From IMG/VR virus record IMGVR_UViG_3300033144_006256, positions 1 through 64,000 of that record: a stretch of 64,000 nt of DNA; one strand, 5' to 3'. Of this stretch, positions 14,044-59,233 are shown piece by piece. Numbering within the stretch: position 1 is the stretch's first letter; every line of letters begins with the position of its first letter. The notes beneath the pieces are model-generated. The model saw nothing but the letters and a program-made list of their open reading frames with translations. It made no database searches and had not been told where the DNA came from. The translations under genes and the position numbers were made by a program. This DNA is from a virus.

Positions 14044-14077
14044 AATCAACTAAGTTAAAAATATGCCAAAGATATAG

Positions 14078-14105
14078 TTGACAATTTACAGAGATATATT
14101 ATAAT
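14078..14105 (+). promoter_or_regulatory. Sigma70-type promoter for a probably leaderless tnpB mRNA
   Basis: TTGACA-16 nt-TATAAT, with ATG 6 nt after the -10 box and no SD. Confidence 0.75.
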
Positions 14106-14111
14106 CTATAT

Positions 14112-15260
14112 ATGGAAAAAGGAATAAAATATAGGTTATATCCTAATAATAAACAAAGAATATTATTAGAAAAACATTTTGGTGCTACAAGATGGTTATA
14201 TAATTATAGTTTGAATAAAAAAATAAAACTATATCAGAGAAGAAACAAGTCGATAAGTTGTTTTGATTTAATAAAAGAAATCCCTAAATTAAAAGATGAT
14301 AGAGAATGGTTAAAAGAAGTTAATTCGCAATCTTTACAGATGGAATTACGCCAACTAGATAATGCTTTCACAAGATTTTTTAGAGAGAAAAAAGGGTTTC
14401 CAAATTTTAAATCAAAGAAGAAAAAAAACTCGTTTAGTATACCACAAGGTAATAGAATAGAAGATAACAAAGTTTCTTTTATAAAGATTGGTAGTATTAA
14501 AGCTAAAATAGACAGAAAATTTGATGGGAGAATAATAAAAGCAACAATAAGTAAAAATAATATAAACCAATATTTTGTTTCATATATTATAGATACCAAT
14601 AATATATTAGAGCATACCAGAAATATCAATAAGAAAACAACTGTTGGGATTGATTTAGGGATAAAACACTTTGCTATTCTATCAAGTGGAGAAAAAATTG
14701 ATAATCCGAAATTTTTAAGAAAATCAGAGCAAAGATTAGCCATTCTTCAAAAAAGATTAAGCAAAAAGAAAAAAGGTAGTAACAATAGAATAAAAGCAAG
14801 ATATAAAGTAGCTAAAATACATAACAAAATATCAAATCAAAGGTCGTATTTCTTACATAATCTAACTTCAAAGCTAACCAACGATAACCAAGTTGATACA
14901 TACGCTATTGAAAATCTAAACATAAATGGAATGATAAAGAACCACTGTTTAGCAAAATCAATTAGTGATGTTAGTTGGGGCGAATTTGTAAGGCAATTAT
15001 CTTATAAATGCAAATGGTATGGCAAAAATCTATTAACAATCGGTAGATTTGAACCAAGTAGCAAAATGTGTAGTTGTGGGTATATAAATAAAGAATTAAA
15101 ACTTTCAGATAGAGAATGGGAATGCCCAGAATGTAAAGTAACCCACGATAGGGATATACTTGCATCGAATAACATTAAAAAATTTGCATTACAAAATCAA
15201 AACTTAATAAATAATTCACCGTTGTTGAAACGGGTAGAGCCTGTGGAGCTGTCGCATTAG
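14112..15260 (+). CDS. tnpB: RNA-guided endonuclease TnpB (IS200/IS605 family)
   Basis: N-terminal KYRLYP HTH; RuvC D/E/D intact (GIDLG, IENL, HDRD); CSCG..CPEC zinc finger. Confidence 0.95.
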   Translation: MEKGIKYRLYPNNKQRILLEKHFGATRWLYNYSLNKKIKLYQRRNKSISCFDLIKEIPKLKDDREWLKEVNSQSLQMELRQLDNAFTRFFREKKGFPNFKSKKKKNSFSIPQGNRIEDNKVSFIKIGSIKAKIDRKFDGRIIKATISKNNINQYFVSYIIDTNNILEHTRNINKKTTVGIDLGIKHFAILSSGEKIDNPKFLRKSEQRLAILQKRLSKKKKGSNNRIKARYKVAKIHNKISNQRSYFLHNLTSKLTNDNQVDTYAIENLNINGMIKNHCLAKSISDVSWGEFVRQLSYKCKWYGKNLLTIGRFEPSSKMCSCGYINKELKLSDREWECPECKVTHDRDILASNNIKKFALQNQNLINNSPLLKRVEPVELSH

Positions 15261-15787: not shown

Positions 15788-17872
15788 ATGGCGACAGCAG
15801 ATAATAGTTTAAATATATTTATTAGGGTTAAAACTGAAGCAGAAAAAGCCATTAGAAATGTATCAAAAGAATTAGATACACTTACTAATAATATTTCTTC
15901 TTTTAGTAAAAAAAATGAAGAAGCTATAAAGGCTTCTAATAGATTTGCTATTGGGCTAACTGCTGTTGCTGGTGCTGCTAGTTATATGGGCAAACAAATG
16001 TTAGATGCAGCTGGAACATTTGAACAAAGCCAAATTGCTTTTACAACTATGCTTGGTAGTGCAACCCGTGCAGAAACAATGCTTGATAAACTTGCTGAAT
16101 TTGCTAAAAGAACACCTTTTGAATTAGCTGGGATAGAAGCAAATACAAAACAATTATTAGCAATGGGAATATCTAGCACTAAGATAATGCCAACATTAAA
16201 AGCATTAGGTGATATTTCAGCAGGGTTAAGTGTACCATTAGAAAGATTAGCTTTAAACTTTGGACAAGTAAAAACACAAGGGAAATTAACAGGTAGGGAA
16301 TTAAGAGATTTCTCAGTAGCTGGTGTTCCATTAGTTGCAGAACTTGCAAAACAATTAAACGTTTCTAAATCCGCAATAGCAGAAATGGTTTCTGCTGGTG
16401 ATATAGGGTTTGAAGAAGTTGAAAAAGCATTTATTTCTATGTCCTCTGAAGGTGGTAAATTTAATAATTTAATGGATAAACAATCGAAATCATTAAATGG
16501 TATGATTTCTAATCTTAAAGACGCTTGGGAATTATTTTTAAGAGGTGAAGGACAAAAATTATTAGAATGGGGAAAGCAATTTGTTCAAATGGCAATAGAT
16601 ATAGTTGATAATAAACTTCCAAAATGGATAAATAGAATTGAAGATATAACTAAATATTTAAAAGAACATAAAACTACATTAATTGTTGTTTCTGGGATAA
16701 TAATGGGTGCATTAGCACCAGCTGTTATTTCAGCAGCAACTGCCTTTAGTGCATTAGCATTATCATTAGCACCATTTTTAATAACTGGTGTAATCGCTGG
16801 TGCATTAGCCGCAGGGATAATAGCTATTATAAAAAATTTTGATAAATTAAAAAAAATTGTAGTAGATACTTGGGATAAAATTAAAAATGGTTGGAAGGCA
16901 GTAGCTAATTGGTTTAAAACTGGTGGAGCAGGGACTTGGGGATGGGTTAAAAATTTTTTCAAATCATTGATTGATAGTATAAAAAGTTTTTTTACATTCA
17001 AATGGATAAAAGATGGACTTTTATCACTTAGAGATATGACTAAACGGGTTACCAAAGAAATCACCGAGACTGATGAAGAAAGGATGGCGAGATATAAAAA
17101 AATACAAGAAGAAACGATAAAAAGGGCGTGGGGGATGGAATTAGAATGGCGAGCGAAACAAATAGAAATGGCGGAAGATGCGAAAGAAGCACAAGAAGCA
17201 ATGGCTAGAGCATCAAAAGAGGCATCAGAAGAAGCAGAAAAAGCAGCAAAAGAAGCATCTAAAGCGTGGAAAGAATATGTAAATAAAACGGTGGATAATC
17301 TTCAAAGGTTAAAAGATGAATTTTTTGGTGAAAGAGATGAAGAAGTATCAGCATTAGAAGATATGATTAGTAAAAGGCAAGAATTACAAGACGAGATTAA
17401 ACAAGAGCGTGGTTTGCTAATGGGAACATTTTTAGGCGAACAACTTACTAATAAAGAAATTGAAAAAAGAATGGCATTACACGGGGACGAAATAAAAGCA
17501 CTTGATAAAAGATTTGTAGCAGAACAAACACAAATAGAACAGGCAGAAGAAAGAATAAGGCAATTAAAATCAGAAGAAAAAATACTTGATACTAATACTA
17601 TTAAATTAAGAGCATTACAAAGACAAGCAGTAGTTGAAAAACAAATAACTGGTATGGGATTAGATTTACCAGCCAGAGAAACACCTGGGTTTCAAGCACC
17701 ACTTCCTATAGATTGGATAAAAGCTGGTATGCCATCACAAGGGTTAGCACAAAATATTCTTAACTTTGATTTTAGCGGAGCAAGAATAGAAGATAAAGAA
17801 ACATTTAAAAATGATATTATAGAAGTATTAAGGCAACAAAGTATACTAGGAGTTCAAGGATTAACACAATGA
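15788..17872 (+). CDS. Tail tape measure protein
   Basis: Tape-measure N-terminal domain (FAKRTPFEL..GQVKTQGKLTGRELR), Trp-periodic amphipathic helices, coiled coil. Confidence 0.92.
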   Translation: MATADNSLNIFIRVKTEAEKAIRNVSKELDTLTNNISSFSKKNEEAIKASNRFAIGLTAVAGAASYMGKQMLDAAGTFEQSQIAFTTMLGSATRAETMLDKLAEFAKRTPFELAGIEANTKQLLAMGISSTKIMPTLKALGDISAGLSVPLERLALNFGQVKTQGKLTGRELRDFSVAGVPLVAELAKQLNVSKSAIAEMVSAGDIGFEEVEKAFISMSSEGGKFNNLMDKQSKSLNGMISNLKDAWELFLRGEGQKLLEWGKQFVQMAIDIVDNKLPKWINRIEDITKYLKEHKTTLIVVSGIIMGALAPAVISAATAFSALALSLAPFLITGVIAGALAAGIIAIIKNFDKLKKIVVDTWDKIKNGWKAVANWFKTGGAGTWGWVKNFFKSLIDSIKSFFTFKWIKDGLLSLRDMTKRVTKEITETDEERMARYKKIQEETIKRAWGMELEWRAKQIEMAEDAKEAQEAMARASKEASEEAEKAAKEASKAWKEYVNKTVDNLQRLKDEFFGERDEEVSALEDMISKRQELQDEIKQERGLLMGTFLGEQLTNKEIEKRMALHGDEIKALDKRFVAEQTQIEQAEERIRQLKSEEKILDTNTIKLRALQRQAVVEKQITGMGLDLPARETPGFQAPLPIDWIKAGMPSQGLAQNILNFDFSGARIEDKETFKNDIIEVLRQQSILGVQGLTQ

Positions 17873-17882
17873 GCATTCAATT

Positions 17883-17911
17883 TTGACAAAAAATAAAATA
17901 TTTTGTATAAT
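17883..17911 (+). promoter_or_regulatory. Sigma70-type promoter for a probably leaderless tnpB mRNA
   Basis: TTGACA-17 nt-TATAAT, with ATG (17918) 6 nt after the -10 box; same geometry as cassette 1. Confidence 0.75.
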
Positions 17912-17917
17912 ATAGAT

Positions 17918-19042
17918 ATGTGTAAGAGTTATAGAATAAAGTTATATCCTAACAATATACAAAAACAAGAATTATTAAAATATGCTGGTGCTTGTAGATT
18001 TGTATATAATTATTTTCTTGATAGAAAGAAAACTGAATATTTAAAAAATAGTAAAAATATCCCATATAATAAACTTTCAAAAGAATTAGTAGTTTTAAGA
18101 CACAATACAAGTTGGCTAAAAAATATACCGTTTGTCCCACTCCAACAATCATTAAGGAATTTAGATACTGCATATAATAAATTTTTTAGGAAACAAGCAA
18201 AATTCCCAAAGTTTAAAAGAAAATATAGTAGGCAATCAATAAGAAAAATTAATGGGTGGCATATAAAAAATAATAAGATAGTTTTTTCTAAAGAATTACA
18301 TTTGAAATTTAGGGGTAGAATTACAGAAAACCCAGTAGGCACTTTAACTATATCAAGGAATGCAATTGGAGAATGGTTCGCCTCTGTAATGGAAGATATA
18401 GAAGTTAAAAAAGTAAAGTTAAAAGGCAATATAGGAATTGATTTAGGTATTAAAGATTTGGCTATAACAAGCGATGGCGATAAATACAAGAATTGCAAAC
18501 CATTAAAATCAAATTTAAAACAATTAAGAAAGAAATCAAAAATACTTTCTAAAAAGAAAAAAGGAAGTAATAGAAGAAAGAAAGCAAGATTTGAATTAGC
18601 AATATTGCACAATAAAATTAGTAATATAAGGAATAATCATCTTCATCATACTTCAAAAGCGATTGTTAGCAAAAACCACGCGATAATTGCATTAGAAGAT
18701 TTGGCGGTTATAAATATGATGAAGAATAGAAAACTATCGCAAGCAATATCAGATGTAGGTTGGGCTGAATTAGTAAGGCAAATTACATATAAACAAAGTT
18801 GGATAGGTGGAAAAGTAATCAAAATTAACAGATTTTTCCCTTCATCGAAGACTTGCTCCAAGTGTGGATTTGTTTTAGATAGTTTGCCATTAAATATTAG
18901 AGAATGGCAATGCCCAAAATGCAAAGCAAAACACGACCGCGATGTTAATGCTGGTAAGAATATCTTATCGCAAGCATTAAAAACCGCTAAAAATATTTTA
19001 AAACAAGGGGTTGCGGAACTGCCCCGCGTGGAGAGCAGATAA
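17918..19042 (+). CDS. tnpB: RNA-guided endonuclease TnpB; likely start ATG 17918 rather than TTG 17903
   Basis: SYRIKLYP HTH; RuvC D/E/D intact (GIDLG, LEDL, HDRD); CSKC..CPKC zinc finger. Confidence 0.95.
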   Translation: MCKSYRIKLYPNNIQKQELLKYAGACRFVYNYFLDRKKTEYLKNSKNIPYNKLSKELVVLRHNTSWLKNIPFVPLQQSLRNLDTAYNKFFRKQAKFPKFKRKYSRQSIRKINGWHIKNNKIVFSKELHLKFRGRITENPVGTLTISRNAIGEWFASVMEDIEVKKVKLKGNIGIDLGIKDLAITSDGDKYKNCKPLKSNLKQLRKKSKILSKKKKGSNRRKKARFELAILHNKISNIRNNHLHHTSKAIVSKNHAIIALEDLAVINMMKNRKLSQAISDVGWAELVRQITYKQSWIGGKVIKINRFFPSSKTCSKCGFVLDSLPLNIREWQCPKCKAKHDRDVNAGKNILSQALKTAKNILKQGVAELPRVESR

Positions 19043-19122
19043 GCCCTTAATTTATTAAGGCAAGCTCTATGAAACGCTGATATCTTAGAAAGGATAATTC
19101 CGTGAGCATTCAATATAATTCA
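19007..19122 (+). ncRNA. Omega-RNA scaffold 2 plus predicted guide
   Basis: Stem GGGGTTG-CGGAA-CTGCCCC; loop complementary to TTCCG (19098-19102); GCGT-GGAG...GAA-ACGC core; terminal hairpin TATCTT-AGAA-AGGATA. Confidence 0.75.
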
Positions 19123-56621: not shown

Positions 56622-56788
56622 TGGGAACTAAAATATACAAAGGGGAAACAATTAGTTGTCTGTATTGCGGAGAAAAGAATATAAAAGGAAGAGATTACTG
56701 TTGGAAGTGCTTCAAACCACTTCGTCCGATTAACAAACCAATAACATAATATACAAAAATTGTTATATGTGGTATAATACAAATAAAT

Positions 56789-57262
56789 ATGGAAAAAATA
56801 CAATTATTATTAAATATAAAAAAAGATATTCAGCTTGAAGAAGCTGAAAAAGGTGATTGGATAGTTGAAGGATATGCAACTACACTTGGAAGAAATTCAC
56901 ATAGAATGCGAATGACAGAAGAAGCATTAAGACAAGTAGCTGAAAACTTTAAAACATATACAACTGTTTTATTTAATCACGATAGCAATGCATTAATTGG
57001 AAAAATACTTGATGCAACAGCAGACGGGGATGGTGTTTGGGTAAAAGTAAGAATATCAAAAAGCGAACCTGATTATTGGGCAAAAATTCAAGATGGAACA
57101 TTAAACAAATTTTCTATACAATATGAAGCTAAAACAAGGAGAATATTTGTAGATGGTGAATTTATAGATGAAATAATAGAAGCATTTGCTGTTGAAGCAA
57201 GTTTGGTATCAATCCCAGCACAAAATAAGGCAGAGGCAATATTAAGCTATGTAGTAACATAG
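56789..57262 (+). CDS. HK97-type prohead protease
   Basis: VEGYA, VLFNHD...IG, FSI and EASLVSIPAQ motifs. Confidence 0.85.
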   Translation: MEKIQLLLNIKKDIQLEEAEKGDWIVEGYATTLGRNSHRMRMTEEALRQVAENFKTYTTVLFNHDSNALIGKILDATADGDGVWVKVRISKSEPDYWAKIQDGTLNKFSIQYEAKTRRIFVDGEFIDEIIEAFAVEASLVSIPAQNKAEAILSYVVT

Positions 57263-57335
57263 AATTTAAAGAATAAAATTATGGACGAAATAGTTTCAAA
57301 AACCAAGAAATTATTTCTTCGTGATAATAGTATAA

Positions 57336-57463
57336 AGAGCAGCGGTACTGCTCTACGTGGAGAGACAATAAGACCATTTATGGGTAACTGTAATAAGGCA
57401 ATCTCAGTGAAGCGTTGATATCTTATTAGAAAGGATAATACCGTGGACGAAATAAAAGCGTTA
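57336..57463 (+). ncRNA. Orphan omega-RNA scaffold 3 plus predicted guide (no tnpB)
   Basis: AGAGCAG-CGGTA-CTGCTCT stem; loop complementary to TACCG (57439-57443); ACGT-GGAG...GAA-GCGT core; TATCTT..AAGGATA hairpin; TGGACGAAATA duplicated at 57282 and 57444. Confidence 0.75.
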
Positions 57464-59233
57464 ATAACAATATTAGAAAGTGCATTAAAAAGTGAAAACA
57501 AAGAAGCGATAAAAGAAAGTATTGATAAAGTTATTGCTAAACTTAAAGGAACAACTGATAAAACAAAAGAAAATGGGTTAAAAGATAGTGTAATCCCATA
57601 TAAACAAACTCCCTTAGCAGAAGAAAAAGAAAAATGGGATGCTGGTGCAGAAGTTAAAAAGGCAACAGGCGATGCAGAAAAACTTTATACAATGCACGCT
57701 TATGTTGATAGAAGCGATGATAATTTTGATGATACAGAAAGTAAATGGTATAAATTGCCGCATCACAAAGGCGATGGCGACCAGCAGTTAGTTTGGAAAG
57801 GATTATCAGCAGCAGTAGCGGCAATGCGTGGTGCTCGTGGTGGCGTTGATGTCCCAAAAGAAGAACGAACAGGTATAATGGCACATTTAAGAAAACACTA
57901 TGCAGAATTTGATAAACCATTCCCAGAAGAAGATAGTGACATTCCTATTTTGGGGTTATCTGAAGATAAAAAAACTATTTATAGGATCGATACAGATAGT
58001 AAATCAACTGTTGACGGGAATCTTGTAAGGGCTCAAGTATTAAAAATTAAAAAGTTAATACATAGGGATGCAAAAGGCGGAGTATTAAATGTTACTAAAG
58101 AAAGCATTAAAAAAATAATCAAGAATTTTAAAGATGGCATTATAGATAATGTTTATGTCCCGCTTGGGCATACAAATGATGTTAAAAAAAATACTGGGAA
58201 AGTTGTTGATTTAATACCAACAGAAGATGGGATGGATGCAATTATAGATGTGCGTGATAAAGGAATAATAAAAAAGTTGAAAGATAAATTGATTGAAAAA
58301 GTTTCTGCTTCAATAGATGAAAATTATCTTAATAAAGAAACAGGCAAATTTGTTGGTCCCGTATTAAGGCATATAGCATTAGTATCAGAACCGTATATAA
58401 AAGGGATGAATAAAGATGGTCTTGTTTTTTTAGAAGAAGATGAAGAAAAAAATGTTGTAGTATTAGTAGAAGAAACAACAATAGAAGAAGATTTAACAAC
58501 AATTAAAGATACAATTAACTTTGCGATTGAAAGGATTGCGAAGAAACTAGTAAAGGATAAAAAAATGTATACAAATGAAACTAAAAATACATCTGATGAG
58601 GTTAAGAAAGAAGATGAAGTTATAGAAGAAAAATCAGATGAAATTAAAGATGAAAAAACTACAGAGGATGAAAAATCTGATGAAACTCCCAAGGAAAAAA
58701 CTAAGGAAGATGAAAAATCTGATAAAAAATCAGATGAAAAATCTACCGAAGATGAAACTAAGGAAGAAAAATCAGAGGATACTTCAACGGATAGCGAATC
58801 GAAAGATGAAACTACTGAAGAAGAATCAGAGTCTGTAGACAACAGCGAGAAAGATGAAGAAATCAACCTCGCAGAAGCTGAAAAAGAATATAATGAATTC
58901 TTAATAGCTGGTAAAGTACTGCCAGTTCAAAAAGATGCCGTTATAGCATTGTTAGCTTCTAAAGGAACGATTAACTTATCAGAAAGTGAAAAATCAGTTT
59001 CTGAACTAGTTAGAAGTTTACTAGAAAAGCAAAAATCTTTGGATTTTGAAGAAAAAGGTGCTGAAAATACTGATAAAGTAGAAACGAAGAGTGAAGATGC
59101 AGAAGCGATAAAAGATGAAAAAATCGGTTTTTTAAAGCAAAAAATGGGTTATTCAGAGGAAGAAGCCCAAGTTGCCTTTGAAGAATATTCAAAGATAAAT
59201 GAGGCAAAAGGCGGGATGGAAACAACAGGATAA
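57443..59233 (+). CDS. Mu-like protease/scaffold (gpI/Z-type) protein
   Basis: YKLPHH domain; PLGH, VSASI and GPVLRHIALVSEP protease motifs; acidic scaffold tail. Confidence 0.75.
   Translation: MDEIKALITILESALKSENKEAIKESIDKVIAKLKGTTDKTKENGLKDSVIPYKQTPLAEEKEKWDAGAEVKKATGDAEKLYTMHAYVDRSDDNFDDTESKWYKLPHHKGDGDQQLVWKGLSAAVAAMRGARGGVDVPKEERTGIMAHLRKHYAEFDKPFPEEDSDIPILGLSEDKKTIYRIDTDSKSTVDGNLVRAQVLKIKKLIHRDAKGGVLNVTKESIKKIIKNFKDGIIDNVYVPLGHTNDVKKNTGKVVDLIPTEDGMDAIIDVRDKGIIKKLKDKLIEKVSASIDENYLNKETGKFVGPVLRHIALVSEPYIKGMNKDGLVFLEEDEEKNVVVLVEETTIEEDLTTIKDTINFAIERIAKKLVKDKKMYTNETKNTSDEVKKEDEVIEEKSDEIKDEKTTEDEKSDETPKEKTKEDEKSDKKSDEKSTEDETKEEKSEDTSTDSESKDETTEEESESVDNSEKDEEINLAEAEKEYNEFLIAGKVLPVQKDAVIALLASKGTINLSESEKSVSELVRSLLEKQKSLDFEEKGAENTDKVETKSEDAEAIKDEKIGFLKQKMGYSEEEAQVAFEEYSKINEAKGGMETTG

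Follow-up and report, generated by a model that had tools for sequence, protein, structure and literature searches.

A tnpB-less omega-RNA cassette fused to the start of a phage head gene, a plausible in-trans guide for a TnpB encoded elsewhere in the genome

Is an omega-RNA (wRNA) scaffold that stands without a tnpB gene at the start of a phage structural gene still usable as a guide by a nuclease encoded elsewhere, or is it kept only because the gene needs it for translation? The question is raised by a 180-bp gap (57263-57442) in the DNA of a tailed phage, between an S78 prohead protease ORF that ends at 57262 and a 596-aa ORF that opens with GTG at 57443. The window, by which we mean the whole stretch of DNA analysed, covers 64 kb from the beginning of an IMG/VR virus record of 84.6 kb, which is estimated to be about 80% complete. 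A sequence-only reading had placed in this gap, to which it gave the same length, a relic start, a scaffold aligning with that of an intact TnpB cassette of the same phage (cassette 2) and the working start of the downstream gene, and had proposed a non-autonomous guide cassette that could load TnpB in trans. We refer to it here as the mini cassette.

The head genes of the phage follow the order Mu-F-like (56034), S78 prohead protease, 596-aa protease/scaffold-like protein, cement protein and gpT-type capsid protein. The gap had been described as lying between two protease genes, which is right for the upstream one, a prohead serine protease on the + strand (56789..57262; Peptidase_S78, Pfam PF04586, E=1.4e-10; PHROG 80), but loose for the downstream one. 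This gene (57443..59233, +) encodes a head-maturation-protease-like/scaffold protein for which a Pfam family search returned no family, and whose match to PHROG 976 ('head maturation protease', E=5e-15) covers only residues 207-581 of the 596.

The gap holds a relic start, 43 nt of uncertain origin and a 108-nt scaffold that runs into the RBS and GTG of the downstream gene. The relic of the ancestral translation start (57268..57292, +), recognized from its sequence and as a direct repeat, consists of an RBS-like AAAGAA (57268-73), an ATG (57281-83) and the 11 nt TGGACGAAATA (57282-92). Both starts are present as reported, the relic ATGGACGAAATA at 57281-57292 and the working GTGGACGAAATA at 57443-57454; the exact repeat that they share is TGGACGAAATA, found again at 57444-54, and it forms part of a wider direct repeat of 25 nt (80%). 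From the relic ATG a 45-codon ORF (57281..57418, +) continues through the scaffold. It has no PHROG match and is probably not a gene, and since this 45-aa read-through of the relic start, devoid of any family match, is the sole ORF of the gap, the claim that no tnpB is present was borne out. What remains of the former tnpB frame is 11 codons before the old stop, with an in-frame TAA directly 5' of stem 1 of the scaffold.

The 43 nt between relic and scaffold (57293..57335, +) were aligned locally with the left ends and the tnpB 3' regions of cassette 2 and of a second complete cassette (cassette 1), and no significant similarity was found in comparison with shuffled sequences (p=0.29-0.76). 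The left ends of cassettes 1 and 2 do resemble each other. That this segment derives by decay from a promoter, a left end or the 3' end of tnpB was considered and dropped as unsupported (p=0.29-0.76). A promoter scan of the + strand of the gap found no sigma-70-like promoter, so that any RNA of the mini cassette must be cut from the late polycistronic transcript. A promoter-like TATACA-17-TATAAT with a TG extension (10/12 matches) lies at 56750-56778, directly upstream of the protease gene, and is the nearest candidate source of a transcript for the mini cassette.

The intact relative and candidate partner of the mini cassette is cassette 2 (17869..19118, +), 38 kb away in the same genome. It consists of a relic (17869-81, aTGAGCATTCAAT), a TTGACA-17-TATAAT promoter (17883-17911), tnpB (17918-19042), a wRNA core (19007-19102) and a guide (19103-18). 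The tape measure gene occupies 15788-17872 and the distal tail protein starts at 19102. In both full cassettes (17869-17911 and 14063-14107) 1-3 nt lie between the relic repeat and the consensus TTGACA-17-TATAAT promoter of tnpB downstream of it, an arrangement absent from the mini cassette. The core of the mini scaffold (57336..57443, +), delimited by its homology to 19007-19102, by its pairs and by the layout of the ISDra2 core, had been said to align with cassette 2, and it does: in a BLASTN comparison within the genome, 101 nt align with the tnpB-linked wRNA at 70% identity (E=1.2e-8), and a covariance model built from cassette 2 alone retrieves the mini scaffold with 62.1 bits (E=5.5e-13, model positions 1-98). 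The same model has no further match at E<1 in the window, its best match in the remaining 20 kb having E=0.066, and it misses cassette 1 (tnpB at 14112-15260), which supports placing the mini scaffold in the wRNA family of cassette 2 and not in that of cassette 1.

The helices of the scaffold correspond to those described in the sequence-only reading. Stem 1 (57336-42/57348-54) reads AGAGCAG/CTGCTCT against GGGGTTG/CTGCCCC in cassette 2, and the pseudoknot between its loop and the 3' end (57343-47 with 57439-43) reads CGGTA:TACCG against CGGAA:TTCCG, a compensatory change. Stem 2 (57355-58/57412-15; 4/4 pairs) is ACGT...GCGT where cassette 2 has GCGT...ACGC. Stem 3 (57361-65/57402-06; 4/5 pairs) encloses a variable inner hairpin (57378-93), and stem 4 (57419-24/57432-37; 6/6 pairs) is terminal. 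The shared motifs GTGGAGAG, TGAA, TGATATCTT and GAAAGGATAAT were all found; the conserved single-stranded ones, GTGGAGAG and TGAA, are unchanged in the mini cassette.

We tabulated by script the 27 pairs of these five helices in both copies (7 in stem 1, 5 in the pseudoknot, 4 in stem 2, 5 in stem 3 and 6 in stem 4). Despite 14 differing stem positions, 26 of the 27 pairs form in the mini cassette and 26 of 27 in cassette 2. In five pairs both bases have been replaced: stem 1 accounts for two of them, and the pseudoknot, stem 2 and stem 3 for one apiece. Two others have turned into another valid pair by a change on one side. When 14 substitutions were placed at random, at least 26 pairs were kept in about 1 of 100,000 trials (P about 1e-5), a figure to be read knowing that the helices were partly derived from these two sequences themselves. 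A mere chance resemblance of AT-rich intergenic sequence to the right end of cassette 2 deserves practically no credence: a loose structural descriptor does find about one nested match per shuffled genome, but the BLASTN and covariance-model E values and the five compensated pairs refute this explanation.

Because the helices come in part from the two sequences under comparison, support from outside is needed, and it is available from two sources, metagenomic relatives and the wRNA of ISDra2 as seen by cryo-EM. Relatives of the cassette-2 TnpB (L107, L108 and L109, 51-54% identical, and more weakly L027) have the same scaffold plan built from other pair types. The pseudoknot is CGGAA:TTCCG in L107 and GGGAA:TTCCC in L108 and L109, types of pairing between loop and 3' end that also include GGAA:TTCC, and its covariation recurs across L107, L108, L109 and L027; stem 2 occurs as CGU/GCG, AUGU/GCAU and GAGCU/AGCUC. 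MAFFT alignments of six scaffolds, which misplaced the 3' ends of L107-L109, did not enter the pair counts. The closest TnpB relatives (52-66% identity) are in Logan/ENA contigs, and a scan of GTDB genomes gave only relatives of at most 43% identity.

In the ISDra2 wRNA, a 116-nt core has a stem 1 loop that pairs with positions -5 to -3 before the guide, stems 2 and 3 are nested and stem 4 is terminal, and cleavage and editing do not require the RNA 5' of the core (PMC10097598). The mini scaffold shares the stem 1-loop pseudoknot, the nested stems 2 and 3, the variable stem 3b and the terminal stem 4, as well as a core of about 110 nt with the guide in the flanking DNA, and it thus keeps the whole equivalent of the functional core. 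It differs from ISDra2 in having no detectable sequence similarity to it, no overlapping tnpB, a terminal hairpin that carries a Shine-Dalgarno sequence and a pseudoknot that ends on a start codon. The architecture of L107-L109 and of ISDra2 (PMC10097598) agrees with the earlier proposal that covariation supports both the pseudoknot and a guide boundary at G57443. With its stems kept and no tnpB in the gap, the mini cassette is a tnpB-less derivative of a TnpB element with a structurally complete wRNA core.

Searches for further scaffolds had a limited yield. The mini cassette matches no Rfam family at gathering or E-value thresholds. The cassette-2 wRNA (18997-19113) matches Rfam poplar-1 weakly and below threshold, with 23 bits where gathering requires 110.5 (E=0.0024), and the mini cassette does not match it. 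Exact-motif scans of IMG/VR gave 0 matches with a first pattern and 119 stretches with a second, all of which failed the check for stems and pseudoknot, and a covariance search of the full L027 and L028 records gave no match and also missed a known weak one. The 84.6-kb record contains no second orphan copy, so the mini cassette is a single copy.

A guide without its own nuclease would need one supplied from elsewhere. The record has exactly two tnpB genes, both intact (14112-15260 and 17918-19042), whose products share 41% identity and each retain the RuvC D/E/D residues. The 17918 TnpB has D175, E260 and D340, in columns that are invariant, and both copies carry the GIDLG, E and HDRD motifs. 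TldR-type nuclease-dead repressors, in contrast, have lost the RuvC catalytic residues that the 17918 protein retains as D175, E260 and D340. The mini cassette is non-autonomous, having no protein gene of its own while two intact tnpB genes lie elsewhere and its scaffold is of the family that goes with the 17918 gene. A TnpA of the Y1 or serine-recombinase type was not found anywhere in the 84.6-kb record.

The 3' end of the scaffold is at the same time the translation start of the downstream gene. The RBS AAAGGA (57430-35) and the GTG start (57443-45), which together span 57430..57445 (+) ahead of the ORF 57443-59233, fall within the cassette: part of the RBS lies in the loop of stem 4 and part in its 3' strand, and G57443 is both the last base of the pseudoknot and the first base of the GTG. 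The final 25 nt of the mini cassette, as read from the sequence, are therefore the Shine-Dalgarno and GTG of an essential head gene, and the 3' end of the cassette has become undeletable because the scaffold supplies this start. The same arrangement, with the RBS in the scaffold and the start-codon G in the pseudoknot, is found in cassette 2 (G19102) and in L107 (G2618). In L107 (1464-2620; TnpB 54% identical) the Shine-Dalgarno AAGGAGGA lies in the terminal hairpin and the pseudoknot ends on the G (G2618) of the downstream GTG; its tnpB start overlaps the upstream stop (ATGA), with neither promoter nor flank repeat.

This fusion could mean that scaffold and hairpin have been domesticated as a 5' leader that acts only in cis and adjusts how strongly the 596-aa gene is translated, for instance by sequestering the RBS within stem 4 or by shutting off the relic start, with TnpB as an RNA-binding repressor at most. 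The position of AAAGGA in the loop and 3' strand of stem 4, the closing of the pseudoknot by the start-codon G, the recurrence of the RBS-in-scaffold design in cassette 2 and L107, and a 19-bp hairpin (described below) that occludes the relic ATG all fit such a role. We consider it quite unlikely nonetheless, as stems 1-3 and the pseudoknot follow the architecture that binds the nuclease and not that of any known leader, no Rfam cis-regulatory family matches, and L108, L109 and L027 have the same scaffold without RBS or start fusion, so that the fold predates any leader role.

A more serious contender is that the mini cassette is inert, the right end of a dead TnpB element that survives only through the RBS and GTG in its last ~25 nt, with the remainder of the scaffold as a passenger that has ceased to act as a guide RNA. 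An RBS and start codon within stem 4 and the pseudoknot would make just this end undeletable; the cassette has no promoter and no left end, exists as a single copy in a transposon-adjacent motif (TAM) context unlike that of cassette 2, and its compensatory changes could date from a time when tnpB was still present. Translation, however, needs only about 25 of the 108 nt. The deletion ends within ~6 nt of the 5' edge of the core, the 26 of 27 pairs retained equal those of the tnpB-linked copy, the single-stranded motifs GTGGAGAG and TGAA are unchanged, and the hairpin that buries the relic looks maintained at the RNA level. In our judgement, a still-usable guide has about an even chance, and an inert remnant kept for RBS and start somewhat less.

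The reading that we prefer, which on the sequence evidence may be right or wrong with similar probability, is that a cassette-2-type element has lost its interior by deletion and that what is left could plausibly still guide the 17918 TnpB in trans. The sequence implies that the cassette is transcribed within the late protease-to-scaffold mRNA, and the scaffold would probably still be cut out of it and loaded in trans by the 17918 TnpB. TnpB has been reported to process its own mRNA into wRNA (PMC10278001), and ISDra2 TnpB contacts its wRNA mainly via the backbone (PMC10097598), which favours cross-use of a scaffold that is 70% identical. Such loading would give the 17918 nuclease a second guide against phage genomes in which the junction is uninterrupted. 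Rivals would then be cut in co-infection and either converted from the carrier, as in homing, or excluded, and the carrier itself would be protected at its working start because the scaffold replaces the TAM there.

The predicted guide, located 3' of the pseudoknot as in ISDra2, is TGGACGAAATAAAAGC (57444..57459, +), the first codons of the downstream gene; its length of 16 nt is an assumption. An uninterrupted target junction is predicted to read ...AAAATTA-TGGACGAAATAAAAGC, and the counterpart of TGGACGAAATAAAAGC in cassette 2 is TGAGCATTCAATATAA. The vacant sites deduced for the elements are ACACAA|TG for cassette 2, AAATTA|TG for the mini cassette and CAAGA|TG for L107, with only the A at -1 and at -4 in common. 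As these contexts differ, cassette 2 and the mini cassette may not share a TAM that a single TnpB would accept. The guide has a 15/16 match, GGGACGAAATAAAAGC, inside the phage's own tape-measure gene (17484-17499, +), and both sites encode D-E-I-K-A. About 1.5% of 16-mers have such a second copy in the phage genome and the match is probably due to chance; an active guide would need to spare the site, through the lack of a TAM or a mismatch at position 1.

How the cassette may have lost its tnpB is suggested by the region 5' of the scaffold. RNA folding, the resulting pair list and a search for inverted repeats show a 19-bp hairpin (57278..57325, +) that buries the relic ATG. Its arms, 57278-57297 (with C57286 bulged) and 57307-57325, are joined by a 9-nt loop (57298-57306), and the fold has a dG of -15.7 kcal/mol (z=-5.47), with 0 of 200 shuffles as good. 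The 5' arm is made up of the last four bases of the flank, the relic with its ATG and another five bases. These recur in inverted form as the 3' arm, which departs from an exact copy by four transitions, all of which leave G.U pairs, and by one indel or bulge. Counting from the TAM side of the relic, the hairpin is symmetric about position 21 (~57302). For ISDra2 TnpB, cleavage falls at 21 nt on the target strand and at 15-21 nt on the opposite strand, and about 12 bp of pairing between guide and target are enough (PMC10097598). A hairpin centred where TnpB would cut points to loss of tnpB by break repair, and our analysis of its position suggests that the deletion arose as the repair of a break, possibly of a cut made by TnpB at its own relic.

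The sequence of events could have been as follows. A full element with promoter, tnpB and wRNA would once have occupied the beginning of the 596-aa head gene, where its right end took the place of the gene's RBS and start (ATG to GTG) and an 11-nt copy of the start stayed behind upstream as the relic. An internal deletion would then have taken the promoter and almost all of tnpB, ending a few nucleotides 5' of stem 1, and it is because it ended there that the whole 108-nt wRNA core and the guide survive. TnpB could still have recognized the relic, which offers a TAM and an 11-nt match, and a break at this point could have been repaired with a short snap-back copy. Repair of this kind would account at once for where the fold-back lies, for the lack of a left end and for the point at which the deletion stops. 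The hairpin would also stop ribosomes from initiating at the old ATG and reading the 45-codon ORF through stems 1-3. The complete scenario, in which TnpB cut its own 11-12-nt relic, snap-back repair deleted tnpB and the orphan guide has since been kept by selection, is rather improbable as a whole.

Whether selection acted after the loss of tnpB depends on how the 3' arm began. If it was an exact copy at first, the divergence since then is ~25%, over a time in which the scaffold lost only one pair, and divergence of the arm with retention of the scaffold would then imply selection on the scaffold after tnpB was lost. The compensatory changes by themselves indicate selection somewhere along the divergence between cassette 2 and the mini cassette, and may all predate the loss.

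Elements of the IS200/IS605 type insert 3' of a TAM without target-site duplication, and here the phage cassettes depart from them: all three carry a direct repeat of the first bases of the downstream gene, 11 nt long in the mini cassette and 12 nt in cassettes 1 and 2. TnpB elements on two other phage contigs have repeats in their flanks of the sequence past their right end, each with one mismatch, of 29 nt in L099 (63-119 and 1390-1424) and of ~63 nt in L142 (1744-1806 and 3187-3250); no flank repeat was found in L107 or L027. These lengths (29 nt, ~63 nt and none) led us to reject a target-site duplication of fixed length as a rule. Flank duplication beside phage tnpB elements is thus recurrent and variable in length. 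The phage repeats, at 11-12 nt, are as long as the heteroduplex read by TnpB, an agreement that may or may not have a meaning.

Other states of the site were sought in three ways. The region 56700-58200 had no blastn match in INPHARED; a search of IMG/VR with the 596-aa protein returned only domain matches of 41-62% identity, with no sister or empty site among them; and a search with a pattern back-translated from the N-terminus gave 0 matches. No RNA run was among the sequencing runs listed for the locus. A marine-sediment DNA run contains a ~90% relative, whose contigs (corresponding to 56803-57252 and 57459-57768) flank the cassette, with none bridging it.

If the 17918 TnpB does load the orphan scaffold, the phage would possess a small multi-guide RNA-guided nuclease system without a transposase. 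Its targets would be the structural-gene starts of the phage itself in their uninterrupted form, and it would amount to a gene drive, or to the exclusion of competitors among co-infecting phages. A mobile element would here have made itself undeletable by becoming the RBS and start codon of an essential gene. Should the self-cutting scenario be true, a one-gene transposon would have turned by a natural route into one nuclease with several dispersed guides; each guide would be the translation start of an essential virion gene, and a single RNA would have to serve both TnpB loading and capsid-gene expression, in competition with each other. Taken together, relic, fold-back and deletion leave a concrete and testable record of how guides without tnpB could come about.

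Among known systems, the wRNA of a TnpB element typically lies at or overlaps the 3' end of tnpB, and the absence of tnpB next to the mini scaffold is the defining difference of a stand-alone copy. Free-standing phage homing endonucleases (intronless homing, PMC13565253) are likewise selfish nuclease systems at conserved phage genes; when a relative co-infects, its uninterrupted allele should be cut and the cassette copied into it by repair, the split site making the carrier immune, and the review proposes non-restorative homing between co-infecting phages. The mini cassette differs from them in that recognition would be RNA-guided and in that it carries only a guide and no nuclease.

Stand-alone OMEGA wRNAs that act in trans with compatible effectors were reported by Altae-Tran et al. 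(2021), according to the summary in PMC10691335. The mini cassette resembles them in consisting of scaffold and guide with no adjacent effector or transposase, and in having an effector locus of the same family in the genome. It differs in residing in a virus without any transposase, as a single copy with no sign of recent mobilisation; in addition, its 3' end doubles as RBS and start of an essential structural gene, and an 11-nt duplication of that gene's start flanks the cassette. Palindrome-associated transposable elements (PATEs) are protein-less IS200/IS605 derivatives whose wRNAs need TnpB in trans (Meers et al., preprint 10.1101/2023.03.14.532601). The mini cassette is also a gene-less TnpB derivative with a right end and wRNA that would need TnpB in trans. 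PATEs, however, keep both end hairpins, can be moved by TnpA and occur in many copies, whereas the mini cassette is a single copy with no recognisable left end, in a record with no TnpA, and its only 5' hairpin is made of flank and relic sequence.

Since stand-alone wRNAs acting in trans are already published (PMC10691335 and the Meers preprint), the mini cassette introduces no new principle, but it is a clean and well-preserved phage case with good internal controls. What sets it apart is that, in a phage devoid of transposases, the scaffold has merged with an essential gene's start and the relic bears the scar of a fold-back. We conclude that the mini cassette is best filed with the stand-alone wRNAs and the PATE-like TnpB derivatives.
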